Part shown: piece by piece, positions 21,702 to 57,517 of the stretch
Position numbering within the stretch: the first letter of the stretch is position 1
Layout: every line of letters begins with the position of its first letter
Source: a virus
Lineage: Duplodnaviria > Caudoviricetes
Length of the DNA stretch: 64,000 bases
Reading direction: 5' to 3' (one strand)
IMG/VR virus record: IMGVR_UViG_3300014204_000151
Coordinates: 21,938 to 85,937 of that record
The notes under the pieces: generated by a model
What the model was told of the DNA's origin: nothing
Seen by the model: the letters and a program-made list of their open reading frames with translations, nothing else
Database searches by the model: none
Program-made: the position numbers and the translations under genes

Positions 21702-22439
21702 ATGACGCAAGAAAATTTTTGGAAAACTCGGTCTGAAAAATATAATCAACTCAAATGGGTTAAAGATGATGATTATTTAGATAAAATAATCTCGGTCTGT
21801 AAACCTAAAAAATCTGATTTAGTTTTAGATGTTGGAACAGGTTCTGGGAAAATAGCTAAAACTTTAAAATCCCATTGTTACCATGTGGTAGGAATGGATA
21901 TTTCTGTGGATATGATGTCTTATAATGAATGGGATGGGATGTCAAAAATTTGCAATGATATTCTTTCTCCTATTTTTAAAAATAATACCTTTGATTTAAT
22001 AACCGCCAGAATGGTATTTCATCATGTTTCAGATGTTCTTCTTGGACTTAAAAATTGTTATAATCTTTTAAAACCCAGCGGAAGAATAATAATAGCGGAA
22101 AGCATTCCACCATCAGATAATCCTGAAGTAATTAAATGGTGGAGCTATGCTCGCAGTTTTAAAGAACAAAGGCATACTTTCTCTTCAAGAATTTTACAAG
22201 AATATTTAAAACAATCTAATTTTAAAAATATAAAATCTTCCTATTATTATCAATCAAAAGAAAAATCCAGCACCAAAGAATGGTTGGCTAACAGTAGGTT
22301 ACCTAAAGATAAACAAAATACTATTTATAATTTACATGTAAACGCTCCTGAAATAGTTAAAACAGCTCATAAAATGATAATAACAAAAAACGATGTTTAC
22401 TGTGAACACCGGCATATTATTATTTTTGGAGAAAAATAA
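21702..22439 (+). CDS. Class I SAM-dependent methyltransferase (UbiE-like)
   Basis: VLDVGTGSG, GMDIS, FDLITARMVFHH, LKPSGR. Confidence 0.9.
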   Translation: MTQENFWKTRSEKYNQLKWVKDDDYLDKIISVCKPKKSDLVLDVGTGSGKIAKTLKSHCYHVVGMDISVDMMSYNEWDGMSKICNDILSPIFKNNTFDLITARMVFHHVSDVLLGLKNCYNLLKPSGRIIIAESIPPSDNPEVIKWWSYARSFKEQRHTFSSRILQEYLKQSNFKNIKSSYYYQSKEKSSTKEWLANSRLPKDKQNTIYNLHVNAPEIVKTAHKMIITKNDVYCEHRHIIIFGEK

Positions 22440-23086
22440 TGGACAATAATCAATCTTTTTGGGATGATTATGTTAAAGATTTCGAATCTAATCCTGAAAA
22501 TAAAAAATATAAACACTTGGGTAACAATTGGAAAGGTGAAAATATTTTTATTTCTTTACTAAAAAAATATTCATCAATAGATAAAATCGCACTGGAAATT
22601 GGATGTGGTGGGGGAAGAATTACGGAAATAGCAAGTCCTCTATTTAAACAGATTATAGCCACGGATATTTCCCCAGAAATGATAAATAAAGCCAGGAAAG
22701 AAACACCAGAAAACAACATACAATGGCAAACTAATAATGGCTTTGATTTTAATGATTTTTCAAATTTAAGTATTGATTTTGTTTATTCACATGATGTTTT
22801 TGTTCACTTCTCATCAATGCAAACTTATCCTTATTTAAAACATATTCATAGAATTTTAAAACCTTCAGGAATTGGCATTATTTCTTTCTACAACTATGTA
22901 CATCATTTTAATTTATTTAAAAATGAGAGCTGGAGATTCAATCAACATAAAATATTTCCACCTTCAATGCGACATCACTTTGTCACGCAACAAATGATTG
23001 AATTAATGTTAAACGATTTAAATTTCAAAATAGTCGAATTTAATTTAACCAATTTTTTAATTGTGGTGTTCTCAAAAAATGATTAA
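22439..23086 (+). CDS. Class I SAM-dependent methyltransferase
   Basis: ALEIGCGGGR, ATDIS, DFVYSHDVFVH, RILKPSG. Confidence 0.9.
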   Translation: MDNNQSFWDDYVKDFESNPENKKYKHLGNNWKGENIFISLLKKYSSIDKIALEIGCGGGRITEIASPLFKQIIATDISPEMINKARKETPENNIQWQTNNGFDFNDFSNLSIDFVYSHDVFVHFSSMQTYPYLKHIHRILKPSGIGIISFYNYVHHFNLFKNESWRFNQHKIFPPSMRHHFVTQQMIELMLNDLNFKIVEFNLTNFLIVVFSKND

Positions 23087-25922
23087 AATTGTCCAACTGT
23101 CACCCAATCCAGTATCCTGCTCTCCTTGGGAATTATATAATTTATTAAAGAACTCTTCCAAGGTAGATTGCCGTCTTATACAAGGAACTTGCAAATATTC
23201 AGAAATAGAAGGAATTCCCGCTCGTTGTTTTCCTTACGATTTATTATGGAACGAGAATAAAGAAGAATGTATTAAATTAATTAAAGAAGCTGGCATTTTA
23301 CATATTCACAATTCTCTTTTTCCAGAAAATTTGGAAGAATATATAAATCCAAATCAAATAATTATACTGCAGCTATATTCTGTTTATAGAGAAAAATTAC
23401 AACCATTAATTGATAAATGTGCAAAATTTAATCCTATAATTGTTATAGCAGACCAACCTTGGCAAAAAAAAGTATATGAGGATATTAGTAAAACTTATTT
23501 ACCTTTAGTAAAAACTGATTATTGTGAAAATACAACGCAAGATGTTCCGGTTATTGTTTATGCCCCTACTAATAAATTACCCCTTTCTCATATATACAGC
23601 AAAGGATATTATGAGGTCTTAGAAATTCTGTATAGACTAAAACAAAAATATGTGTTTAATTTAAAAATTATAGAAAGTGTTCCCTATGAAGAAAATTTAA
23701 AATTAAAACAAAACGTTGATATTATAATTGATGATGTTATCAATGAAAATGCTATACATGGTACAAGCTTAGAAAGCTGTTGTTATGGAGCTGTACCATT
23801 AACCAACTATTCTGGAGAAGATTATCCATTTAAAAAAACCAATTTACAATCATTAGAAAAAACAATAGAAAATTATCTCATTTCTCCAGAGTTATTAGCC
23901 CAAGATAAAAATAAAATAACCGAATGGCAAAAAAATAATTATACAAAAGACATATTATTGAATAAGTATGAATTGTTCTATGAGAATTGTATAGTTCAAC
24001 AAAAAACTAAAATATTAAATATAGATAATCCTTATGAACAATCAGAAAGGATGGAAAAAGCAAAAACAAAACTTTTTCAATTAATGGTGGATTGGCTCAA
24101 TAAAAATAATATTCAATTTTTTCTTAGTTTTGGTTCGGCATTAAAAGCTTATAGAGATAATGAACACGCTTTAGATGCTGATTTTGGAGTATTTTATGAA
24201 TATAAATGGCAAGTTAAAAAAGCTATAGAAACATCTCTTCCAGATGAAATAATGGTGAATTGTATTTGGAGAGGAGAAATTACATTTAGATTTAAAGATT
24301 CAAAGTATCCTAAATTAGATATTATCTTTTTTGATAAGCAAGATGATTATTATAGATGTAATATTTATAGTAGAAATCCAATGAATGGATTGATTACTTG
24401 GGAACGAGGAATTAAAATTTCACATGAAGCTTTGAATAAATTTAAACAAATAGAATTCAAAGGCCGAACGGTTGATATTCCAAAAAATATTAAACAATAT
24501 TTAACAGAAAATTATACAGAAGAATGGAAAATACCTTTACCTAAAAAAACTATGGGGTGGGGCAGTAGGCCTTGTGCTGACTATAATCACCGGCAAATAG
24601 CTATTATTATCCCAACTTTTATAAGAGAAAATAAAGTAACCGAATGTATTAAATCTGCTTTGCAAGTTTATCCAGAAGGGATGATTAGAATTTATGTAGG
24701 AGACCAAAGCGATGTAATATCTGAATCTATGCTTGAGTTTTATAAAGAGTTACAGTCTAAAGGTCATGTATTTATTAAATTACCATTTAATTGTGGCTTA
24801 TCCTATGCTCGAAATTTTCTCATATCACAAACAAAATCAGAACCTTATATTATGATTATAGATGATGACTTTATTTTTACTCCCAAAACTGATTTAAGTA
24901 AATTCATAGATGTATTAGAAGAAAAAGAATCCCACGGAATAGCTGGTGGATGTATAGAAAATAGATACCATTATGCAGGATGGTTGGAGTATCTGCCATC
25001 TATTCAAAAAATACTTAAAATTGATATTTTTTCAGTTCCCCAAACTATAAATTTAACAACCGAATATAATTATAAACAAAGAAAAATTGCTTATTATTAT
25101 AGCGATATAGTTCTTAATTTTTTCTTAGCTAAAAAAGAAATTTTTAAAGATATACAATGGGATAATAATTTGCCACTTGTCGAGCATACCGACTATATGC
25201 TTCGATTAAAGCAACTTAATAAGTGGAGGGTTTGTTATGTTCCAGAGGTATCTATTAACCACTCATCACACGCAAACGAAGAAAATTATAAAAACTATAG
25301 ACACAACGAAAATAAAAATATCGGAATTGAAAGATTCTGTAAGAAATGGAATTTAAATGGTCTTAATGATATTTGGAGACTATCTGATAAGTTAAAAGTC
25401 CAACCTCAAGAGGATATTTCTTTATTAAAAGAACTTGAGCAAAAAGAAAATAATATCGCCGCACAATTAAAAAAAGAAGAACCTGTAATTAATCCAGAAG
25501 AAATTGTTGTAGAAACCGAAGTAGTAAAAAAAGAACCAATTAACAATATTACTTCTATTAATTTGTTTAGAGAATTAACAGAAATATTAGAAAAAGAAAA
25601 TATTACTTTTTGTCTTTTAAAAAATACCTGTTTAAATGTAGTTTTAAATAGAGATTTTACAGAAATAACTTCTAATTTATACCTGAGTATTTGTGTGTCT
25701 GATAAATTAAAAGAACTGCTTAAAAAAATGGATTATATTATAGAACCAGATAAAATATCAAAAAATAATATATTCGTATATTTAGGTTCCATGCCATCAA
25801 AAATGAAAAAATGGACGGTTGGAAGTAAAACAATGAACGTTCCTTTTCCATTAATAAAGTACTTAGAAGATACCTTTAAAAAATCTTGGACAGAAATACA
25901 AAAAAGTGTAAAAAATGAATGA
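23061..25922 (+). CDS. Multidomain GT4-like / LicD-like / GT2 / degenerate LicD-like protein (probable start 23079)
   Basis: DIIIDD...G..LES...G.VP (GT-B); FGSAL..YRD...DADFG (nucleotidyltransferase); IIIPTF...GDQ...ARN...IDDD (GT2). Confidence 0.75.
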   Translation: MWCSQKMIKIVQLSPNPVSCSPWELYNLLKNSSKVDCRLIQGTCKYSEIEGIPARCFPYDLLWNENKEECIKLIKEAGILHIHNSLFPENLEEYINPNQIIILQLYSVYREKLQPLIDKCAKFNPIIVIADQPWQKKVYEDISKTYLPLVKTDYCENTTQDVPVIVYAPTNKLPLSHIYSKGYYEVLEILYRLKQKYVFNLKIIESVPYEENLKLKQNVDIIIDDVINENAIHGTSLESCCYGAVPLTNYSGEDYPFKKTNLQSLEKTIENYLISPELLAQDKNKITEWQKNNYTKDILLNKYELFYENCIVQQKTKILNIDNPYEQSERMEKAKTKLFQLMVDWLNKNNIQFFLSFGSALKAYRDNEHALDADFGVFYEYKWQVKKAIETSLPDEIMVNCIWRGEITFRFKDSKYPKLDIIFFDKQDDYYRCNIYSRNPMNGLITWERGIKISHEALNKFKQIEFKGRTVDIPKNIKQYLTENYTEEWKIPLPKKTMGWGSRPCADYNHRQIAIIIPTFIRENKVTECIKSALQVYPEGMIRIYVGDQSDVISESMLEFYKELQSKGHVFIKLPFNCGLSYARNFLISQTKSEPYIMIIDDDFIFTPKTDLSKFIDVLEEKESHGIAGGCIENRYHYAGWLEYLPSIQKILKIDIFSVPQTINLTTEYNYKQRKIAYYYSDIVLNFFLAKKEIFKDIQWDNNLPLVEHTDYMLRLKQLNKWRVCYVPEVSINHSSHANEENYKNYRHNENKNIGIERFCKKWNLNGLNDIWRLSDKLKVQPQEDISLLKELEQKENNIAAQLKKEEPVINPEEIVVETEVVKKEPINNITSINLFRELTEILEKENITFCLLKNTCLNVVLNRDFTEITSNLYLSICVSDKLKELLKKMDYIIEPDKISKNNIFVYLGSMPSKMKKWTVGSKTMNVPFPLIKYLEDTFKKSWTEIQKSVKNE
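24779..24818. repeat. 40-bp exact direct repeat, copy 1 (copy 2 at 26109..26148)
   Basis: ATTACCATTTAATTGTGGCTTATCCTATGCTCGAAATTTT identical in both GT2 domains. Confidence 0.9.
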
Positions 25923-26721
25923 CCAAACTTTAGCAATACTTGTTACCACTTTTATAAGAGATGAGTTGTTATATAAAACCATACAAAATATTGTAGATAA
26001 CTTTCCAAAAGATTCCATTCTTCTTATTGCCGACCAGGGACTTCCCTCTACAGATAAAGATAAACAAATTGAAACCTTTAAATCAAAAGTTCCCTTAGAA
26101 TACTTTCTATTACCATTTAATTGTGGCTTATCCTATGCTCGAAATTTTTTAGTTAAAAAAGCCTCAGATTTAAATATTCCTTATGTATTAATGTCTGCCG
26201 ACAGTATTCAATTTACTAAACCATATAACTTTCAATCATTTATAAATTTTTTAGAACAAGATATAAGACGAGGGCTTATAGGATTTAATTTATTAGGAAG
26301 TAAATGTCCCTGGGAATTTTTAATGGAATTAACCACGCAAGGAATACTATTTGATACTTCTACTATTTTTATAGAACATGAAAATATTATCTATAAAAAA
26401 TGTGATATAGTAAGAAATATATTTTTAGCAAAGACTAACACTCTTCTTAATTTGTGGGATAATAATTTACATCTTTGTGAGCATGAGGATGCTTTTATTA
26501 CTTATAAACAAAAAGGTTATGAGGTTTACTGGACAAATTATATTTCATTTAAAAAAATATCTACAGATAATTCTGAAGAATATAAAACACATAGAAGCCA
26601 ATTCTCAGAATATCAATCACTGTTAAAGAAAAAACTAAATATTAAAACCTGGGTAATATACAGTCCAGAAGCTATGAGAGAAATAAGAAATTACAAAAAG
26701 GAGCAAAATGATACAAATTAA
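25915..26721 (+). CDS. GT2-family glycosyltransferase
   Basis: ILVTTF, IADQG, LPFNCGLSYARNFL, CEHED. Confidence 0.8.
   Translation: MNDQTLAILVTTFIRDELLYKTIQNIVDNFPKDSILLIADQGLPSTDKDKQIETFKSKVPLEYFLLPFNCGLSYARNFLVKKASDLNIPYVLMSADSIQFTKPYNFQSFINFLEQDIRRGLIGFNLLGSKCPWEFLMELTTQGILFDTSTIFIEHENIIYKKCDIVRNIFLAKTNTLLNLWDNNLHLCEHEDAFITYKQKGYEVYWTNYISFKKISTDNSEEYKTHRSQFSEYQSLLKKKLNIKTWVIYSPEAMREIRNYKKEQNDTN
26109..26148. repeat. 40-bp exact direct repeat, copy 2
   Basis: Identical to 24779..24818. Confidence 0.9.
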
Positions 26722-42129: not shown

Positions 42130-42663
42130 TTAAGTTAAAGCAATTCTACACTTCAATGAAATCTTTTGCCTATAACGGTCTTCCTTCTCTAATGTATTTG
42201 GATCTGTATTATTGAATTCTTTTTTATCCTCTAAAATCTTTTCTATTACTATTTTTCCTTTTAATGTTTTATTTATTACTATTCCATTATCAATTTCGTA
42301 TTCATAATAATCTGGATTATGCTCAAAAATCCCATGTTTACCAACTAAAAAATCATCGAGATCTTCTCTAATCCCATCTCCCGTCCCAAACACCCTGATA
42401 TAAACTACATAATAACGCAAATTTCTATGTCCACCAATCTCTAATGGTGTAAACGTCCTGTCAACAATATTTATTAAAATACACGGAAGCTCTCCTTTAT
42501 AAACTTCAGACATCGTTTTTACAACACGAATCTCAGTCCAGTCTTCTTCAGCCAATTCTTCAGAAAGAAAATCCAAAAGGCTGGCCTCAATATTTCTACA
42601 CTCGCGATACTTTCGCATGGATAATCTCCTCATAATATTTCTTCCAGTATTCTCTTTTTCCAT
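42130..42663 (-). CDS. Putative tail terminator/completion protein (start probably downstream of 42663)
   Basis: Acidic, LPCILINI pattern, position before the tail tube. Confidence 0.5.
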   Translation of the reverse strand: MEKENTGRNIMRRLSMRKYRECRNIEASLLDFLSEELAEEDWTEIRVVKTMSEVYKGELPCILINIVDRTFTPLEIGGHRNLRYYVVYIRVFGTGDGIREDLDDFLVGKHGIFEHNPDYYEYEIDNGIVINKTLKGKIVIEKILEDKKEFNNTDPNTLEKEDRYRQKISLKCRIALT

Positions 42664-43456
42664 TAGTCATAGAATGACAACTTCTACAAAGAGAAATCAA
42701 ATTATATATATCACAGTTTTGTTTATTATAATCAATATGATGAATATCTAACATTTTTCCATTTTCTAATTGAGAACATCCACAACCTTGACATCTATAA
42801 TTATCTCTAAATCTAACTCGTTCTTTTAAATCTGAATCAAATTCTTGACTATATTCTCCAAATGAACTCCCATTATTCCAATTTGGATTTAATTTTCCCT
42901 TTAAATTTTCTGTTTTCCATAAATAGAAACGTTCTTTATTACAAAAAAAATCTTTTGTATATTTTATACGATTTGGATATATTTCTATTATTTTTCCACA
43001 ATAGGAACAATTAATTTTTAATTTTTCTTTATAATTTGGATTATTTATACCAGTTATGTATAGTCTTTTTTTACCGAACATAGGATTTAATTCGCCTATA
43101 TGGCAATACCCCCTAGATTCAATTTTAAAATACTTAAACCTCCGACAAACGGCTGATTCAGAAATTTTATATTTATCTGCAATTTCTTGCATAGTTAATT
43201 TATTAACATAATATTCTTCAATTAAACTATCTTTTGTTAATTCTTTAGCATTGTTTCTAAATTTCCAATATTGAATTAATTTTGATTCTTTATTATTTCT
43301 AACTTCTATATTAAATTTTCTTAAAAATTTTAAAACCGTATCATCACTACAAAAACATTCTTCTGCAATTTTCCTGGCCGATTTTTGATTTTTTATATAT
43401 TCTTGAACTAAAAAACTTTCGGTTAATATTTTTTTAATTAGTTTATTTCTCACCAT
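42596..43456 (-). CDS. HNH homing endonuclease with HTH repeats
   Basis: RFRDNYRCQGCG...LDIHHIDYNK...NLISLCRSCH; paralogous to 3469..4197. Confidence 0.85.
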   Translation of the reverse strand: MVRNKLIKKILTESFLVQEYIKNQKSARKIAEECFCSDDTVLKFLRKFNIEVRNNKESKLIQYWKFRNNAKELTKDSLIEEYYVNKLTMQEIADKYKISESAVCRRFKYFKIESRGYCHIGELNPMFGKKRLYITGINNPNYKEKLKINCSYCGKIIEIYPNRIKYTKDFFCNKERFYLWKTENLKGKLNPNWNNGSSFGEYSQEFDSDLKERVRFRDNYRCQGCGCSQLENGKMLDIHHIDYNKQNCDIYNLISLCRSCHSMTNGKREYWKKYYEEIIHAKVSRV

Positions 43457-48590: not shown

Positions 48591-50231
48591 TTATTTCTTT
48601 TTCCAAGTTTTAGATTCTTTATCGTAAACATATCCCTGTTTTTTCATACATCTCTGAGCCGCGGAATTAGCTATACTTAAACTTTTAGCCTCATTCCCAG
48701 TCTCTTCATAAACAGAATTAAAAGTAGCCATAAATGTTTCTTGACATTTTACTGTCATTTTTTTTATATATTCGGGAAGTTCATCTAAATTTTTATAAGG
48801 AGCTTCCTCTAATACTTTTTCCGCTTTATTCATAGTAGTCGGCTTCTTTTCTTTTTCAGTATTTTTTTCAATCTGTTTCTTTGTAGTTGGAATAACTGCG
48901 TCCACACCTTTATCTTCACTATTTTGAATCAAATGCGGATAATAAATTTCTCTTAATCCATCAGACCACTCTTTTTTCATTCTCTCCAATTCCTGGTCTG
49001 GATCTATCCCCAATACCTCTTGATAAGTCTGAACACTTATTGTACCATAAATATAAGCAGAACGAATATCATCTAAAATTAATGAGGTATTTATATTCAA
49101 CGGCGTATTAACAACTTTCAAATAATTTTTATCACTAAATAATTTTTTATGGTCATATTTATTTTCAACTATAATTAATCGAATAACATCCATTAACATA
49201 GACTTAAATCCATCAACCCCCGCATTAACCTCAGCAACAAACGGTTTTGGATTTATTACTTCCTGCTCTCTTGTATTTCCAACTCCTTGCATTACACCCA
49301 CAAAACCTAAACCGGCAAGAATCGCTCGGTATCCCTGCCGATACAATTCCTCAGACAACATACCCTTTAAATCTGGAATCAAATGACTATATTTTTGGTC
49401 AAATGGAACCGCGTTTACCGGAATATCACCTTTATAACCCTTATATTTTTCTAAAGCAGTTTTAAAACTGTCTACCAATGTTTTTAATTCATCATTAGTA
49501 TAATCTACATCTTTTTGTAAGAAAACATCTTTATCTCCCTTTTCAATCATAAATAAATAAGGAAGAACTTTACTAATAACCTCATCAGACTTTTCTGATA
49601 AAACTTCCAACCCTCTAAAATTTTTATAAACACCCTTTTTAATTAAATAACTCGTGGGATATTTAGTATACCACCGAGAATATGGTTTTTGTATAATAAT
49701 CTTTTCTTCTTTTTTTGCCGGAACGCTTATTTTCATTGCTTCATCTAAATAATAAGCATCTGAGCCTAATTTAAAATTCTTTTCATTTGTTCTCTTAATA
49801 AAAACAGACCCACCATTTACAAACCATAAAACCGTAGGAACTGTTATAGAATTGTTTCCAATTGATATTTTTTTCCATTGACTCAACCTCATTAAACACA
49901 AAGAAGAACCGGCCCAGCGTTCTTTATAATATTCTAAGGCCAACTCTTTTATTCCTGTAGGAACTCCATCTATATTTACATTTATATTTTCTAACCAAAG
50001 AGATAATAAATCTTCCAAAGTCTGATCTGAGCTTTCAATTTTAAACTGTGCTTCGGATGCAGAATTAATAGCATAATCGGTAATTGTTGATATTACTCCG
50101 GTTATATCATTTCCAAGCATTATATTAACAGCACTAACCTGCCCGTGAAAATCTGAAGGAATAGAAATTTCACCGGTCTTATAAAGATACTCTAAAAATT
50201 TTTCAAATAATCCAGTCGCTAATCCCGCCAT
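48591..50231 (-). CDS. Portal protein with C-terminal ChaB-like domain
   Basis: Directly after terL, 546 aa; tail APYKNLDELP...Q..F...FNS.Y...A matches ChaB. Confidence 0.7.
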   Translation of the reverse strand: MAGLATGLFEKFLEYLYKTGEISIPSDFHGQVSAVNIMLGNDITGVISTITDYAINSASEAQFKIESSDQTLEDLLSLWLENINVNIDGVPTGIKELALEYYKERWAGSSLCLMRLSQWKKISIGNNSITVPTVLWFVNGGSVFIKRTNEKNFKLGSDAYYLDEAMKISVPAKKEEKIIIQKPYSRWYTKYPTSYLIKKGVYKNFRGLEVLSEKSDEVISKVLPYLFMIEKGDKDVFLQKDVDYTNDELKTLVDSFKTALEKYKGYKGDIPVNAVPFDQKYSHLIPDLKGMLSEELYRQGYRAILAGLGFVGVMQGVGNTREQEVINPKPFVAEVNAGVDGFKSMLMDVIRLIIVENKYDHKKLFSDKNYLKVVNTPLNINTSLILDDIRSAYIYGTISVQTYQEVLGIDPDQELERMKKEWSDGLREIYYPHLIQNSEDKGVDAVIPTTKKQIEKNTEKEKKPTTMNKAEKVLEEAPYKNLDELPEYIKKMTVKCQETFMATFNSVYEETGNEAKSLSIANSAAQRCMKKQGYVYDKESKTWKKK

Positions 50232-50242
50232 AATTTATCTCC

Positions 50243-51877
50243 TTAGAATGACCCCAACCCCGGCTTTTTTGGATCTTTTTGTACTGTTAATATTGGTAAT
50301 TGCTCTGTCAACCACTCAAGAACCGCGAACACCTGCATCCCTTGCAAATAGTGATCCTCAGTAGTAGAACCGTAAACTATCCTATTACCGGAAACTGTAC
50401 TAACATAAGAAGAAAATTGATTATCAAATTTATAATCATCATCCGGTATGTCAAACTTTCTATCAAAAAATAACTCGTTCAATCTTCTTACTGAAAAAAC
50501 TAATGCATTTTCTTTTTTTTCTATAACATTGCCTTTGTTATCTCGTATAACTCTTCCTTTTTCGTTTTTTTCAAATCCTGTAACTATATCTTCATTAAAA
50601 GCACAATAATGAACTCTTCTATTAACCTTAGTCAACATTCCTTTATCATCGAATTCTTTATCATTAAGCCTTTCACTTAAAATTTCATAAACCGGCTTAC
50701 CTAAAATTGTCGAGTCAACGGCCAAAAAGTTTCCACCAACTTGTCTAAAAATATATTCTATAACATCCGGCAATTCTTGTGTCAAAGATAAACGATACGT
50801 AGTAATATTATAAATTAAATGATATTTTTTATTAATTAAAGCTATAACACATATTTCTGTTGCCGCTGTATCTCCAATATCAGCCGTTACAAAGATTTTA
50901 CTTGCTTGTGGTAATCTATCTAAAACTAATAAAGATTTAAAATAGTTAATATTATTCTTGGTTATTTCAAATCTTTTAATTGTACGCTTTTTATTATAAC
51001 AAGCTCTTACATTTTCCAAATCAAAGGCCCCGGATGCCCCCTCGACTAAATCTGCCGCCACATTAATTTTATAACTGGAGGTTTCTTTTCCTCCATAGTC
51101 TCTAATTCTTCTTTCTTTAGTTGCTTCATCCCATAAATGACTAACATATTGAGGTAGTCTAATTAAACTTTTTTTAAAACTTCTATCATGCAAAATCCTA
51201 CCAAGGGGAGATGTTTTTGTAACCAACGGAATTCCACAAAAAATTTCTAAACTTCCAAAATCAGAAACAGCGTCCACTTTATGTGTATAAGCCGTTTCTG
51301 TCTCTGCTTGAATTTCATCTTGAAAAATTATATGGAAATGGTGTCCCCAAAAATTTTCGCCGGGGGATTTTCCCTTTGTAGTTTCATTGATACCAAACAA
51401 TTTATTCCCATTTTTTGTTTCTATTAAATATTCTGGGCTTCCTGTTATTCTTTGTTTATAACTTTTATAAAAATTATGATAACCAATAAACTCTTTAACA
51501 CTATCCATTACTTTAGAAACATGTTTTTCATCATAACTTGCCATTGCAATTTCTAAATCACTGTAATGAACAATCTTCATTAAAATGTTTGCAACCAAAC
51601 CGCAAAAGGTCTTACCTATCTTCCTCGCCGACACTATAATTTTCGTTCCTACTGCTATACGTTTTCTAAAATTTTCTAACTCTGATAATCTATCATCATC
51701 TTCTAACGCAGAATCAAATCCGAAAAACGGCCTTTGGTATGCCCTAATAGAAATACACGGTTTTTTATCGTTCCAATTTTTAGGCGTTCCTTTGGAAAAA
51801 GTTGATTCTATAAAACACCTAACATCAAAAAATCGTTCACAAAAAAATAATTCTTCTTCTGTTAAATTTTTTATCAT
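50243..51877 (-). CDS. terL: Terminase large subunit
   Basis: Walker A SARKIGKT, Walker B IIFQDE, RNase H-like ADIG and EDH acidic motifs. Confidence 0.88.
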   Translation of the reverse strand: MIKNLTEEELFFCERFFDVRCFIESTFSKGTPKNWNDKKPCISIRAYQRPFFGFDSALEDDDRLSELENFRKRIAVGTKIIVSARKIGKTFCGLVANILMKIVHYSDLEIAMASYDEKHVSKVMDSVKEFIGYHNFYKSYKQRITGSPEYLIETKNGNKLFGINETTKGKSPGENFWGHHFHIIFQDEIQAETETAYTHKVDAVSDFGSLEIFCGIPLVTKTSPLGRILHDRSFKKSLIRLPQYVSHLWDEATKERRIRDYGGKETSSYKINVAADLVEGASGAFDLENVRACYNKKRTIKRFEITKNNINYFKSLLVLDRLPQASKIFVTADIGDTAATEICVIALINKKYHLIYNITTYRLSLTQELPDVIEYIFRQVGGNFLAVDSTILGKPVYEILSERLNDKEFDDKGMLTKVNRRVHYCAFNEDIVTGFEKNEKGRVIRDNKGNVIEKKENALVFSVRRLNELFFDRKFDIPDDDYKFDNQFSSYVSTVSGNRIVYGSTTEDHYLQGMQVFAVLEWLTEQLPILTVQKDPKKPGLGSF

Positions 51878-52634: not shown

Positions 52635-53864
52635 TTAATTTGATACTCCTGATATTTTTTTTATAGAAGCAATTGCTATTCCACTTATTTTCAAAATAGA
52701 AGATTTAACAACATTTATTACTTTTTTAATCAAAGAAGTATCCCCATACATATTATCAATATAAAACGTATTTGCCGCATCTGCGTTTTCTATTGTAAGT
52801 ATAATCTTATCAATTGCATTTTTATTTTCGTCAGAAACTGCTGATATATCCAAAACTACTTCTTGGAAAGTATCTGCTGAAACTATATTCGGAGTAATTT
52901 CAGTAGTTGTACCACCTGAATCATGTAGCCCCACCTTAATATTACTTCCTGTCCTACTTGCTCTTGCGTCAAACTTTACTGTGTTTTTACCTGATAAATC
53001 TATTGGTGAAGAAATAGTACGAGTTAAAGTTTTATTGAGGCTGTCTGTTTGTGCGGCTATTCCTTTGAGAGAGTAAGAACCTTGTGTTTTAATGGTGGAT
53101 TCGGAGTAAGCCAATAAATTATTTGTAGAAGGACTATACGGACTCGTAGGAGGAGTAAAATTAGAAGTCCAACGAGCTATACCTTTTGATATACGAAATT
53201 CATCTATCCATCCATTGACATAACTCAGAACATGACCTATTGATAGACTCACGGATAAATTTCCCACATCATTAGTACTAAAAGACGTATACGTAGTTAT
53301 TGTTTGCGCTACACCATTTACAAATATATATGCACTAGATCCATTTCTTACAAAAGCAAGATGATACCAAGTATTAGTACTTGGGCTCCAATTACCAGTC
53401 ATTTGATAATTACCTCTCCAAACTCCGCCAGAGATAAAATTCATAGTGAGTTTATGCCCATTCGGGGCATTACACTTATATAATACCCACATATTATTAT
53501 CGTCAACTCTTTGACCTATAAAATCTGCCCAATCTGAAACATCTGCCCATTTCACCCAAAAATCTACAGTAAAATTTCCTGTACCAAAATACCAATTATC
53601 AGAATCAGGCAAAGACACGTAATCAGAATTACCATCTAATAAAAGTGACGCATTTTCAAATACACTCTGGGCAGTATCAAGTTGAGCTGTGCCATAAAAA
53701 GTATATGCTCCTGCTACAGGGTCTGTAAAAGAGGTTGCTCCATCATCCCCATCAAAATGACTAACTAGTTTAGTATAACTATCATAAGTATCACTTGTTA
53801 CATATTTTGCTTGTATCAAACCATTTGAAGAATACTCATAATAATCGAGTTCTATTATAGACAT
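52635..53864 (-). CDS. LamG/concanavalin-like lectin-domain virion protein
   Basis: YTKLVSHFDG, FTVDFW, WYHLAFVR, GWIDEFRISKG. Confidence 0.85.
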   Translation of the reverse strand: MSIIELDYYEYSSNGLIQAKYVTSDTYDSYTKLVSHFDGDDGATSFTDPVAGAYTFYGTAQLDTAQSVFENASLLLDGNSDYVSLPDSDNWYFGTGNFTVDFWVKWADVSDWADFIGQRVDDNNMWVLYKCNAPNGHKLTMNFISGGVWRGNYQMTGNWSPSTNTWYHLAFVRNGSSAYIFVNGVAQTITTYTSFSTNDVGNLSVSLSIGHVLSYVNGWIDEFRISKGIARWTSNFTPPTSPYSPSTNNLLAYSESTIKTQGSYSLKGIAAQTDSLNKTLTRTISSPIDLSGKNTVKFDARASRTGSNIKVGLHDSGGTTTEITPNIVSADTFQEVVLDISAVSDENKNAIDKIILTIENADAANTFYIDNMYGDTSLIKKVINVVKSSILKISGIAIASIKKISGVSN

Positions 53865-53955: not shown

Positions 53956-54636
53956 TTACACATGCTCCACCTGAACTAACGAAGGATTAAAAAATATTAA
54001 CTTCGTTGTTTTTGCCCATCCCAATACTTGAATAACATTATTTGTAGCACTCGGAGCAGTATTTGTCATTTTTCCCGCTGTTGCTGCACTTAAATATATA
54101 AAACTTCCTGCTGTTAAAGCATCCCAAGAATCATTTCTTGCAAATCCTAATACTAGAAATGTTTTAGTATCTGAAGCATTTCCAGCCTCTGTTGCTAATA
54201 CTACTGCTGAAGCATTTGCTATTGCATCTGCTTTAGCTAATTGCGCTTCTCCATCAGCATTTATATAACACACATCTCCTTGTGCTATTGTTTCATGGCA
54301 TACTAATGTTGTTTTTATTCCTTCAAAAGTATCATCTGCTGGAGTTGAGTTTATTATTAAATTTGATAATAATTTTTTCCAAGAAGAAATATATTCATAA
54401 TGTATTCCTTCATCAACTACATAAACAACCATCCCCGCAATCGCAGAAGTAGAATCCCAAGTAGAACCATTATACGTAACTATTTTTCCATCTAATCCAG
54501 CCCATGCTCCAGACCCCGTTCCATAAATTAAATACCTATCGCCCTTTGATGCCGCTGGAGGCGATGTTAAATCTTTATCTATAACAGACTTTTGCCAAAG
54601 AAAACTATCAAGGCTTGGGATTTTATAACTCGACAT
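53956..54636 (-). CDS. DUF2793-like domain plus capsid-cement-like domain protein
   Basis: KGDRYLI...GAWAG...W; GDVCYI...A.ADA...G...L...G..T pattern. Confidence 0.65.
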   Translation of the reverse strand: MSSYKIPSLDSFLWQKSVIDKDLTSPPAASKGDRYLIYGTGSGAWAGLDGKIVTYNGSTWDSTSAIAGMVVYVVDEGIHYEYISSWKKLLSNLIINSTPADDTFEGIKTTLVCHETIAQGDVCYINADGEAQLAKADAIANASAVVLATEAGNASDTKTFLVLGFARNDSWDALTAGSFIYLSAATAGKMTNTAPSATNNVIQVLGWAKTTKLIFFNPSLVQVEHV

Positions 54637-54648
54637 GATTTTTCTCTC

Positions 54649-56376
54649 TTATAATTTGATACTGTCTACTAATAATATATAACTTCCTGTCAATTCTCCA
54701 CCTTCAAACCATCCGTTGTTTTTCCAATTAAAACGAATTATATTTTTTATTTTCAGAACATCTTTGTATCTAAGATAAACTAATTTATCGCTATAAGTAC
54801 GAAGATGTGCCACATCTGAAAATGATGGAACAGAAAATAAAACTCTTTTTCCACTTTCAATATTTTGTAAAATTTTTAAATCATCTAAATGCTCAAACGT
54901 TTCTGTTGAAACAAATGTATCATAATTACCTTTATAATTTTTTTTGTTGTAAGCATCCCCCTGCCAAACATTTTTATTATTTGAAATCTCTACTGCTTTT
55001 GGTGAGAAATCAAATCCACTATAATTTTGTACAAACTTTTGTAGAAATCCACAACCACAACCAATATCTAAAACTTTTTCTTCTCCTACCATTTTACCTA
55101 TTTTATCATAAAGTTGATAATATCTTAGCATATTACTATCAGAACTAAATAAATTATCATAATAATCAGAACATTTTTCTACTTTCTTTCTTAACGTTAA
55201 AACATTATTACTATTTGCCAAGTTTGCATATTCTGTCCACTTTGCTTTATTATTTGGCCCACATAATTCTGCCATAAACTCTAAAGCCTCTGCAAAATCA
55301 GCATTTATTTTTATTGCTTGTAAACAGGCGTCTTTTGCTTCATCGTTTTTATTTATTGCCCAATAACATCTCGCCAACATCAACCAGGCTTCAGACCATT
55401 CTGGTGGCCAAAACGCTCTTGTTAAATAATCTTTATACCAATAAATAGCCGTAATATAATCTTTTCTATACCAGTACTCTCTTGCTAAATAAAAAACTTC
55501 TCTTACTAATTCTGGATTTTTTTCAACTTCTTTTTTTAAAATTCTTAAGGCCCTATCTGGGTCATTCTCATGTGCTTTACTATAACCATAAGTTATTTTT
55601 ATATCGGACTTATTGTTGTCTGAAACATTTAAATAATTATGAATAGCTCCACACCAATAAACTTCTTCGCATTTTTTAAATAGTCTTGGAAAGAAAAATT
55701 CGCTTCCCTCGATATTTGCAACCATTATAATATTGATAGTTTTTTGATTATTATTTTCTGCAACATCAATTGCTTTTTTTATTCTATCAACGCCATTTTC
55801 CATCAAAACTTCATCACAATCAATTGATAATACCCAATCTCCACTTGCTTTAGATAATGCTAAATTTCTTGCCTCTGCAAAATTATCATTCCACTTGTAT
55901 TCATTTTCAAAAACTTTATCAGTATAGTTTCTTGCTATCTCACAAGTTTTATCAGTAGAACCTGTATCCAAAATAATAATTTCATCTATACCAACTAAAC
56001 TTTTTAAACACTTTTCAATACAAGACTCTTCATTCTTACAAATTAAAACCGCTGATAATTTTAATTCTTGTTTCTCTATTTTTTCAAAATGAAATCCGCA
56101 TCCTTCAAATAAATTTTCTGGCAAATAAGGAAACATTGAACACAGCGTACATCTTTTTTCATAATTATTACATTTTTTTGTTTCTAAATCTAAATGAATA
56201 CATGGAGTATTAGCAATATCAATAACATCCATTGTGTTTTTTTCTAAATTAGTTGAATAAGATGTAACCGGATTGCAACACCGACCACAATTATTACATT
56301 TGCCAACTAATTTCAACCCTCTGGATTTTCTTGCGTTCTCTATAAAAGATTTAAATATTTTATCTTTATTTTCCAT
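54649..56376 (-). CDS. YkgJ (CxxCxxCC) - GT2 - TPR - SAM methyltransferase fusion
   Basis: CNNCGRCC; ICKNEE, DTGSTD, F..ARN, SIDCDE; TPR helices FYLAREY; VLDIGCGCG, ETFEHL. Confidence 0.88.
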   Translation of the reverse strand: MENKDKIFKSFIENARKSRGLKLVGKCNNCGRCCNPVTSYSTNLEKNTMDVIDIANTPCIHLDLETKKCNNYEKRCTLCSMFPYLPENLFEGCGFHFEKIEKQELKLSAVLICKNEESCIEKCLKSLVGIDEIIILDTGSTDKTCEIARNYTDKVFENEYKWNDNFAEARNLALSKASGDWVLSIDCDEVLMENGVDRIKKAIDVAENNNQKTINIIMVANIEGSEFFFPRLFKKCEEVYWCGAIHNYLNVSDNNKSDIKITYGYSKAHENDPDRALRILKKEVEKNPELVREVFYLAREYWYRKDYITAIYWYKDYLTRAFWPPEWSEAWLMLARCYWAINKNDEAKDACLQAIKINADFAEALEFMAELCGPNNKAKWTEYANLANSNNVLTLRKKVEKCSDYYDNLFSSDSNMLRYYQLYDKIGKMVGEEKVLDIGCGCGFLQKFVQNYSGFDFSPKAVEISNNKNVWQGDAYNKKNYKGNYDTFVSTETFEHLDDLKILQNIESGKRVLFSVPSFSDVAHLRTYSDKLVYLRYKDVLKIKNIIRFNWKNNGWFEGGELTGSYILLVDSIKL

Positions 56377-56386
56377 TATTTTTTTT

Positions 56387-56412
56387 GGGAAGGGAGAAAT
56401 TAATCTCCCCTC
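56387..56412. repeat. Conserved hairpin, copy 3 (after the collagen gene)
   Basis: GGGAAGGGAGA-AATTAA-TCTCCCCTC. Confidence 0.8.
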
Positions 56413-56431
56413 TTTTATTGTAACTATATTT

Positions 56432-57517
56432 TTACCAAGTGGTTATGATTAAACATCCGTAATCGGAGTCAAACGTGGCTCCAGCTAACCCAGTTGCACC
56501 TTTTGCACCTGTGGCTCCAGTAGCCCCAGTTGCACCTGTGGCTCCGGTAGCACCAGTTGCACCTTTAGTACCCTGCGCACCCTTCGTACCCTGAATACCC
56601 TGGTCACCCTTAGTACCCTGAGCACCTGTTGCGCCTGTAGCTCCGGTTGCGCCTGTGGCTCCGGTTGCACCAGTTGCACCTTTAGTACCCTGCGCACCCT
56701 TCGTACCCTGAATACCCTGGTCACCCTTAGTACCCTGAGCACCTGTTGCGCCTGTTACACCTTTTTCAACAAATAAATCCCAATGTTCTGTATCTGTAGG
56801 AAGTTCTGTTGTAGCTGAAGCAATACAAATATATCCACTACCTAAATATTCTACACAATCATTAACATCATAAGGCCCAGGAGAAACCCAAGCACCCTTC
56901 CAAACATATTGAGTACCATCAGCACCTGTTGCGCCTGTAGCTCCGGTTGCGCCTGTGACCCCGGTAGCACCAGTTGCACCTTTAGTACCTTGCGCACCCT
57001 TCGTACCCTGAATACCCTGGTCACCCTTAGTACCCTGAGCACCTGTTGCGCCTGTAGCTCCGGTTGCGCCTTTAGTACCCTGCACACCCTTCGTACCCTG
57101 AATACCTTGATCGCCCTTAGTACCCTGAGCACCGGTTGCGCCTGTAGCTCCGGTTGCGCCTGTAGCTCCGGTTGCGCCTGTGGCTCCGGTTGCGCCTTTA
57201 GTACCCTGTGCACCCTTCGTACCCTGAATACCTTGCTGACCTAAATATTCTGACCAAGCAGACCCGTTATATTTCCAAAATTCACCAAGAGCAACTATCC
57301 AAGCAACCATTCCTGCTCTTGGAGTAATAAATTGCCAAGTCGCTCCATCATAATAAGTAATATAATTCTCTTTCCCAGCCCAAGCATCTTCTGCTGTAGC
57401 AATAATTAAATACCTATTACCTTTTGTTGGAGTTAACCCAACCGGAGTATTTCTACGAGAAATAACACTCTCTTGCCACTCGAATTGTTCCAAAATTGGC
57501 ACTCTGTAATTTGCCAT
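56432..57517 (-). CDS. Collagen-like virion fibre with DUF2793-like N-terminus and internal carbohydrate-binding-like module
   Basis: Two Gly-X-Y tracts of GAT/GTK/GAQ; WKGAW...YDVND.V.Y.GS.YIC...HWDL insert. Confidence 0.9.

Follow-up and report, generated by a model that had tools for sequence, protein, structure and literature searches.

A collagen-like fibre gene and an adjacent GT2-TPR-methyltransferase gene in an uncultured phage: a candidate counterpart of the SgtA-BclA3 pair

Organization of the locus

The stretch of DNA analyzed here (the window) comprises the final 64 kb of the single-contig, 85,937-bp genome of an uncultured phage (IMG/VR record IMGVR_UViG_3300014204_000151, positions 21,938 to 85,937). 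This study deals with two neighboring genes of that stretch, one encoding a threonine-rich collagen-like fibre protein and the other a four-domain enzyme that combines a family 2 glycosyltransferase (GT2) domain with a tetratricopeptide repeat (TPR) domain and an S-adenosylmethionine (SAM) methyltransferase. On the minus strand, four genes of the same direction form the start of a leftward late operon, in the order collagen, enzyme, a 226-aa protein, and a protein with a LamG domain. The gaps between them measure 55, 12 and 91 nt, respectively, and no terminator-like sites were found between the four genes on this strand. Throughout the 85,937 bp of the genome there is a single collagen gene and a single GT2-TPR gene, and these two are mutual neighbors. 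An original prediction, made from the letters of the window alone, had described a collagen gene followed after 55 nt by a GT2-TPR enzyme with a methyltransferase tail, flanked by paralogous DUF2793-like N-termini and close to a LamG gene. The coordinates and gene contents hold: PF10983 is detected in both flanking N-termini, which are recognizable as paralogs by BLASTP (7e-19), and the LamG assignment is confirmed by PF13385.

The collagen fibre gene (56432-57517, minus strand) encodes 361 aa and matches the collagen family PF01391 in two blocks (E 1.3e-33) as well as PF10983 (E 1.4e-14). Its N-terminal DUF2793 domain, assigned by Pfam, occupies residues 1-92 (57242-57517); the two DUF2793 matches of the locus score 54.1 and 48.2 bits (residues 17-88 and 13-82) at a Pfam gathering cut-off of 27. 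As read from the translation, collagen block 1 (residues 93-200, 56918-57241) consists of 36 triplets of the types GAT, GTK and GxQ, and block 2 (residues 251-349, 56471-56767) of 33 triplets, after which only 12 residues follow. In these 69 G-X-Y triplets, position X is occupied by Ala 40 times and by Thr 15 times, and position Y by Thr 32 times, Gln 20 times and Lys 15 times; hence, 47 of the 60 Thr residues of the protein lie within triplets. The blocks are separated by a globular insert of 50 aa (residues 201-250, 56768-56917), which bears a weak resemblance to carbohydrate-binding modules (CBM_5_12, E 0.011, below cut-off) and also occurs in the collagen open reading frames (ORFs) of six related loci. 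At the DNA level, positions 56505-57165 are made of 117-nt and 90-nt repeats with 91-94% identity. The number of collagen repeats is likely to vary between strains. The product of this gene is the predicted glycosylation substrate.

Domain architecture and relatives of the enzyme

The enzyme (575 aa, 54649-56376, minus strand) is composed of a Cys-cluster domain, a GT2 domain, a TPR domain and a SAM methyltransferase domain. The catalytic GT-A/GT2 domain comprises residues ~105-265 (55582-56064; PF00535, E 1.4e-18). It is directly followed by the TPR helical domain (residues ~266-386, 55219-55581; TPR_14 and TPR_19 at residues 328-371), whose residues 267-386 are modeled as helices and which is presumed to be the acceptor-binding part. 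In the AlphaFold model, the mean predicted local distance difference test score (pLDDT) is 86 from residue 100 on and exceeds 90 in the GT domain. The protein possesses no hydrophobic segment (the highest 19-residue Kyte-Doolittle average is 1.2), and judged by its sequence it is a soluble enzyme without a membrane segment. GtrB-like O-antigen conversion was considered as a function and rejected, with phrog_841 matching at E 0.001 only and no membrane segment present.

Of the proteins with solved structures, Listeria GmaR, a flagellin O-N-acetylglucosamine (O-GlcNAc) transferase (PMC9638930), matches the sequence best through its GT domain (E 3.8e-26, query residues 107-284), followed by ThuS and SunS. 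In Foldseek, ThuS and SunS rank at the top (1e-17) with matches spanning both the GT and the TPR domain, and wall-teichoic-acid and polysaccharide GT2 enzymes begin at 1e-9 only. The likeness to SunS is one of fold only, given that the SunS family TIGR04195 scores 56.8 bits against a curated cut-off of 350. The close characterized relatives thus all combine GT-A with helical repeats and have proteins or peptides as acceptors, in agreement with the kinship to flagellin glycosyltransferases that the original prediction had proposed to search for.

Across 32 homologs with 46-67% identity, the DxD motif (D186/D188) is invariant, and little or no variation is seen in many residues of the GT-A core and in the SAM-binding LDxGCG motif. 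Because of this conservation, both catalytic domains look functional. It bears on the idea that the protein is a TPR-based chaperone for folding or assembly of the collagen fibre, in which glycosyl transfer has been lost or is incidental. TPR domains serve to bind proteins, the trimerization of collagen fibres requires assistance, and the collagen of the window lacks a C-terminal trimerization domain; but invariance of the DxD motif, GT-A core and SAM motif speaks for retained catalysis, and we regard a mere chaperone as very unlikely.

Two further domains flank the GT2-TPR core. The methyltransferase domain (class I, residues 400-575, 54652-55179; Methyltransf_23, E 2e-7) is fused to the GT in 24 of the 81 viral enzymes compared below and is encoded by a separate gene in two more, and no methyltransferase was seen among the Bacillota enzymes of SgtA size. 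GTs that have the methyltransferase and GTs that lack it are linked to collagens of indistinguishable Lys content (p 0.89), and therefore we see no support for the SAM methyltransferase acting on Lys. The simplest reading is that it would methylate the transferred sugar.

The N-terminal Cys-cluster domain (CxxCxxCC, residues 26-93, 56098-56301; PF03692, E 5.5e-6) contains eight Cys that are invariant in four sequences, i.e. the enzyme of the window and its three closest full-length homologs. Among the homologs listed, only these four possess the domain; the remaining ones cover ~80% of the query, starting at about residue 100, and a scan of metagenomes for the enzyme recovered solely forms that begin at ~residue 100. 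A sequence search of the PDB with this domain was uninformative. Salmonella FliB, which methylates Lys of flagellin with the help of a [4Fe-4S] cluster, has an N-terminal Cys motif described as similar to PF03692 (PMC8598068). This likeness, together with the G-T-K triplets of the collagen, suggests, speculatively, a third modification.

Linkage with collagen genes in viruses and bacteria

The enzyme family is known from metagenomes only. A protein database contains 733 homologs, most of them ~470 aa (GT2-TPR-methyltransferase) or ~290 aa (GT2-TPR) long, and at least 514 IMG/VR stretches encode a relative. We scanned 81 viral loci, fetched as the best ~80 of these at least 514 stretches, for ORFs with G-X-Y runs. 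A collagen ORF is present in 57 of the 81 loci; it lies within 2 kb of the GT in 47, on the same strand in 44 of these 47, and within 500 bp in 30. When the GTs are clustered at 60% identity, 24 of 36 clusters show a same-strand collagen at a distance of up to 2 kb, and 19 of 36 at up to 500 bp. As a background, 120 viral stretches (1.03 Mb) fetched by an arbitrary 14-mer yielded three collagen ORFs, in three loci, so that the density of collagen ORFs is ~30-fold higher next to the GT. Adjacency of the two genes is thus conserved across diverse phage contigs, as the original prediction had required of it. Many of the collagen-negative loci sit on contigs of just 4-6 kb.

Clostridioides difficile SgtA, a 358-aa protein with a GT-A and a TPR domain, is encoded immediately upstream of bclA3 and adds beta-O-GlcNAc to Thr of the GPT collagen repeats of BclA3 in vitro (PMC7157674). 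If the phage enzymes work like SgtA, their collagens should therefore be rich in Thr at position Y. This is what we observed: the median fraction of triplets with Thr at Y is 0.685 in 45 GT-adjacent viral collagens versus 0.097 in 104 collagens of a general viral sample, which was fetched by a DNA pattern of Gly periodicity and comprises 119 loci (Mann-Whitney, p 3e-14). Within this general sample, three of the 119 loci hold a homolog of the GT core, and the collagen ORFs found there have Thr fractions at Y of 0.76, 0.70, 0.46 and 0.0. Since mere membership in a shared variable module gives no reason to expect such a richness in Thr at Y, the signature favors an enzyme-substrate relation and constitutes the strongest argument for it.

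The same pairing is found in bacteria. Our bacterial sample consists of the best 80 loci, mostly from Bacillota (Clostridia, Bacilli, Paenibacillus), whose enzymes center on 355-365 aa. The Bacillota enzymes share 30-35% identity with the enzyme of the window (E 1e-28 to 1e-36). A collagen ORF with a Thr fraction of 0.60 at Y is present in 41 of the 80 loci, usually directly downstream of the GT, and an arrangement like that of SgtA and BclA3 seems to be widespread in Bacillota. Examples among these loci (L202-L281) are L259 (7155-8777) and L219 (7196-8236); the collagen-paired ones include gut Lachnospiraceae and Oscillospiraceae as well as soil Bacillus and Paenibacillus. A search with a Romboutsia homolog did not bring up C. 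difficile SgtA. The N-terminal half of the Bacillota GT also matches many contigs of Woesearchaeota and Nanoarchaeota metagenome-assembled genomes (MAGs; L431-L466), with 40-64% identity over ~100-150 residues.

In a midpoint-rooted phylogenetic tree, computed with the quick method FastTree from rows that do not include SgtA, GmaR or SunS, the viral enzymes form one clade (54 rows, support 100), which contains one MAG contig and in which the enzyme of the window and that of its closest relative, locus L006, group together (support 99). Apart from it stands a sister clade with the main Bacillota enzymes (59 rows, support 99). Adjacency to collagen is scattered over both clades (32 of 54 viral rows and 31 of 59 Bacillota rows); hence, judging from this tree, the association of collagen and GT looks older than the split between viral and Bacillota enzymes.

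Several observations weigh against the collagen as substrate of an SgtA-like enzyme. The collagen of the window is atypical in that Thr occupies only 0.46 of its Y positions and Lys 15 of them, and in L006, the closest relative, the collagen is short, its Thr fraction at Y being only 0.07. Twelve of the 36 viral GT clusters lack a collagen ORF within 2 kb in the fetched flanks, and both genes belong to a fibre and host-recognition module, where unrelated genes cluster too. Furthermore, the likeness to SgtA was judged by described size and architecture; the methyltransferase matches only generic class-I families and PDB entries, which do not indicate its acceptor; and no close homolog was found in cultured phages (GenBank phage records), where the best match shares only 28-30% identity along most of the GT2-TPR core. 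These points leave room for another acceptor, such as the 226-aa protein, the LamG protein or the capsid, or a host protein like flagellin, whose modification would alter adsorption or block superinfection, with the adjacency to collagen arising merely from a shared variable fibre module. Flagellin is indeed the target of GmaR, the best sequence match, and in PMC11256854 (citing Freeman 2023) mycobacteriophage GTs are described as modifying the capsid. However, co-location does not predict that specifically the linked collagens are rich in Thr at Y, the two genes usually lie directly side by side on one strand, and the same pairing occurs in Bacillota, where SgtA has been shown to act on collagen. 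Hence, we consider a different acceptor unlikely. The central proposal of the original prediction, that the enzyme glycosylates the collagen fibre, passes these comparative tests in terms of protein- and peptide-directed relatives, conserved linkage and Thr signature.

Decoration fold and position of the fibre

The 226-aa protein (53956-54636, minus strand) starts with the second DUF2793 domain (54361-54636; PF10983, E 9.8e-13) and ends in a domain of 134 residues (53959-54360) with the fold of capsid-decoration ('cement') proteins. When the model of residues 95-225 is compared by VIA-align, the twelve best matches are all phage capsid or procapsid chains, led by HFTV1 (Z 11.5), Pam3 (11.0), Adjutor (10.9) and Patience (10.3); further matches are XM1, FCWL1, Sf11, BB1, E217 and TW1, the lowest decoration-protein Z being 7.7. 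Compared with the base by which the phi29 head fibre binds the capsid, the domain scores Z 7.1, and compared with lambda gpD, Z 5.3. Foldseek matches the protein to 8saj (2.5e-5), and Pfam Phage_cement_2 and Phage_cement_3 are hit at E 0.03-0.05, below cut-off.

In 97 homologs of the 226-aa protein, the decoration domain is C-terminal throughout. It occurs without a detected DUF2793 or collagen in 76 of them, after DUF2793 in 11 and after collagen in nine. At six loci, it is the GT-adjacent collagen itself that ends in the decoration domain, and the N-termini of these collagens are only 21-112 residues long. In these six phages, the GT-adjacent collagen is probably a head fibre anchored by the decoration domain, reminiscent of SPP1 gp12, and some GT-linked fibres are thus probably fibres of the head. 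In the phage of the window, collagen and decoration fold reside on separate proteins that share DUF2793; its fibre may be tethered to the head via the 226-aa protein, or it may be mounted on the tail.

DUF2793 has been described as the conserved, particle-attached N-terminal end of tail fibres, for example in RcGTA rcc00171, alterophage R7M ORF41 and Pseudomonas phage DMS3 gp49 (PMC5026251, PMC8265664, bioRxiv 10.1101/150227). The gene order of L006 (7341-11139) is DUF2793-collagen, GT-TPR-methyltransferase, and a fusion of DUF2793 with a region matching the C-terminal half of the LamG protein of the window (4e-47). Because L006 reshuffles the same modules, DUF2793 is, by sequence comparison, a predicted common adaptor for interchangeable outer modules. 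The collagen protein of L006 is a short Lys-rich one of 191 aa, and the middle of its last protein appears discoidin-like, as read from the alignment.

Proposed mechanism

From the domain identities, the catalytic motifs, the conserved linkage and the substrate signature we infer the following model, to which we assign a probability of roughly 70% as far as its core, the SgtA-like Thr O-glycosylation of the collagen fibre by the 575-aa enzyme, is concerned. The enzyme would be a cytoplasmic O-glycosyltransferase that acts on proteins in the manner of SgtA and GmaR, with a GT-A domain for catalysis and the TPR domain for acceptor binding. Late in infection, it would move a sugar onto the Thr hydroxyls of the collagen-like product of the gene lying 55 nt upstream, before or during the zipping of the chains into the triple helix. 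By analogy, the donor would be a UDP-sugar of the host, most likely an N-acetylhexosamine (HexNAc). The fused SAM methyltransferase would then most likely O-methylate, i.e. cap, the sugar. The product would be a glycan-covered collagen fibre, mounted on the virion via its DUF2793 N-terminus; to judge from the protein combining DUF2793 with the decoration fold and from the collagen fusions in relatives, such fibres may often be anchored to the capsid. The coat might serve as a glycan shield or as a mimic of the host surface, the two purposes suggested in the original prediction.

A bolder version of this model would assign a function to every domain of the enzyme. According to it, the phage carries a glycosylated collagen 'nap' on its capsid, as the viral counterpart of the hairy nap of the exosporium, and the enzyme is a complete tailoring machine that performs Thr O-glycosylation (GT2-TPR), sugar capping (SAM methyltransferase) and FliB-like, iron-sulfur-dependent Lys methylation of the G-T-K triplets (8-Cys domain). 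If true, this triply modified collagen would be without known precedent in any virus. In this full form we find the scenario rather improbable.

Further genes of the window

The contig has a G+C content of ~30%. A tape measure gene identifies the virus as a tailed phage, and overlap in gene families with known phages is very small. The LamG protein (409 aa, 52635-53864, minus strand; PF13385, E 6.9e-18) is a virion protein with structural and baseplate matches in PHROG. A terminase had also been proposed next to this module. For the gene in question (50243-51877), no match was found in Pfam, PHROG, NCBIfam, the PDB or GenBank phages, and support comes solely from the language-model Atlas (0.99 to Terminase_6N/6C clusters), so that we retain it as terminase-like. 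The neighboring protein in the position of a portal (546 aa, 48591-50231, minus strand) has a ChaB-like C-terminus below threshold (E 9.7e-5) as its sole family match, and family and PDB scans gave no match above threshold. An HNH endonuclease gene lies within the structural block (42596-43456, minus strand; phrog_8446, 1.1e-34). Of the sequence words sampled, 95% are found in one landfill metagenome and small shares in two groundwater runs, which hints at the habitat; no RNA datasets containing this stretch are listed.

A second cluster of putative glycosylation and methylation genes is located on the plus strand (21702-26721). It encodes a 953-aa protein in which a GT2 domain (E 2.6e-15) is combined with a weakly LicD-like part (E 0.005), two SAM methyltransferases (E 4.7e-22 and 1.3e-18), and a 268-aa protein with weak matches to GT2 (0.0017) and to a TET-associated GT (0.0076); a Maf-like identity within the cluster has no support from Pfam. 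These genes could serve the extension of the fibre glycan or the modification of DNA. Phage GTs often modify DNA, and this cluster, with its one weakly TET-associated-GT-like protein, would be compatible with the notion that the 575-aa enzyme, too, glycosylates and methylates phage DNA in an anti-restriction hypermodification. Yet its gene belongs to the late structural operon, its fold and sequence are nearest to those of peptide and protein GTs with TPR, and its linkage is with collagen genes, not with base-modifying enzymes. A role in DNA hypermodification is therefore hardly to be expected, and O-glycosylation of the collagen fibre remains the preferred function.

Comparison with known systems

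The compact pair of an SgtA-like GT and a Thr-rich collagen recurs widely in uncultured phages. If our interpretation is true, glycan-coated collagen fibres are common on the particles of environmental phages and affect their adsorption, stability and recognition; the decoration of collagen surfaces follows a single ancestral logic in phages and in spore-forming Bacillota; and the two adjacent genes offer a ready test system and a possible tool for glycosylated collagen-like materials.

To our knowledge, glycosylation of phage virion proteins is known experimentally essentially from mycobacteriophages only. Among viruses of eukaryotes, the giant Mimivirus codes for collagen-like surface proteins and also for their glycosylating enzymes; its chemistry is hydroxylysine-linked, and its enzymes are unrelated to that of the window. 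According to PMC11256854 (citing Freeman et al. 2023), the GTs of the mycobacteriophages Che8 and Rita modify the phages' own virion proteins and give a glycan shield. As in our model, phage-encoded GTs serve the phage's own virion proteins there, but the sugar goes to capsid and tail-tube proteins instead of collagen. A relation between these GTs and the enzyme of the window was not detectable in sequence searches or in GenBank phage records.

Collagen-like or head-mounted fibres are known from other phages. SPP1 gp12 is a collagen-like trimer on the capsid (PMC7602432), and the capsid-binding base of phi29 gp8.5 shares the C-terminal fold of the 226-aa protein (Z 7.1). In contrast to our model, neither is reported as glycosylated in PMC7602432, and the domain order differs, the decoration fold being C-terminal here. 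New in the present system are the decoration fold at the end of a second DUF2793 protein and the fusion of this domain behind collagen in relatives.

Among the protein-directed enzymes, GmaR likewise has a GT domain followed by TPR, but it continues into linker and anti-repressor domains (MogR) and acts on flagellin, whereas the enzyme of the window ends in a methyltransferase. No flagellin gene was found among the scanned ORFs of the window; the first 21.9 kb of the genome were searched for collagen, GT-core and fibre domains only. SunS and ThuS are peptide-directed GT2 enzymes and give the best structural match over the GT and helical domains; unlike the proposed enzyme, these glycocin S-glycosyltransferases modify Cys of small bacteriocins, and no gene for such a peptide is present here.

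The closest parallel is that with SgtA and BclA3. Both systems pair a soluble enzyme of GT-A and TPR domains with an adjoining collagen-like gene that carries Thr at Y, and the bacterial relatives of the phage enzyme are of SgtA size, half of them being collagen-adjacent. The enzyme of the window differs from SgtA in that it is phage-encoded, belongs to a separate, well-supported viral clade, and has an additional domain at either end, the 8-Cys cluster at the N-terminus and the SAM methyltransferase at the C-terminus. Likewise, BclA3 is a protein of the spore surface, whereas the phage substrate would be a virion fibre with a DUF2793 anchor. Hence, the two genes probably represent a phage version of the SgtA-BclA collagen O-glycosylation pair, which has been extended by two domains and is probably linked to capsid-anchored fibres.

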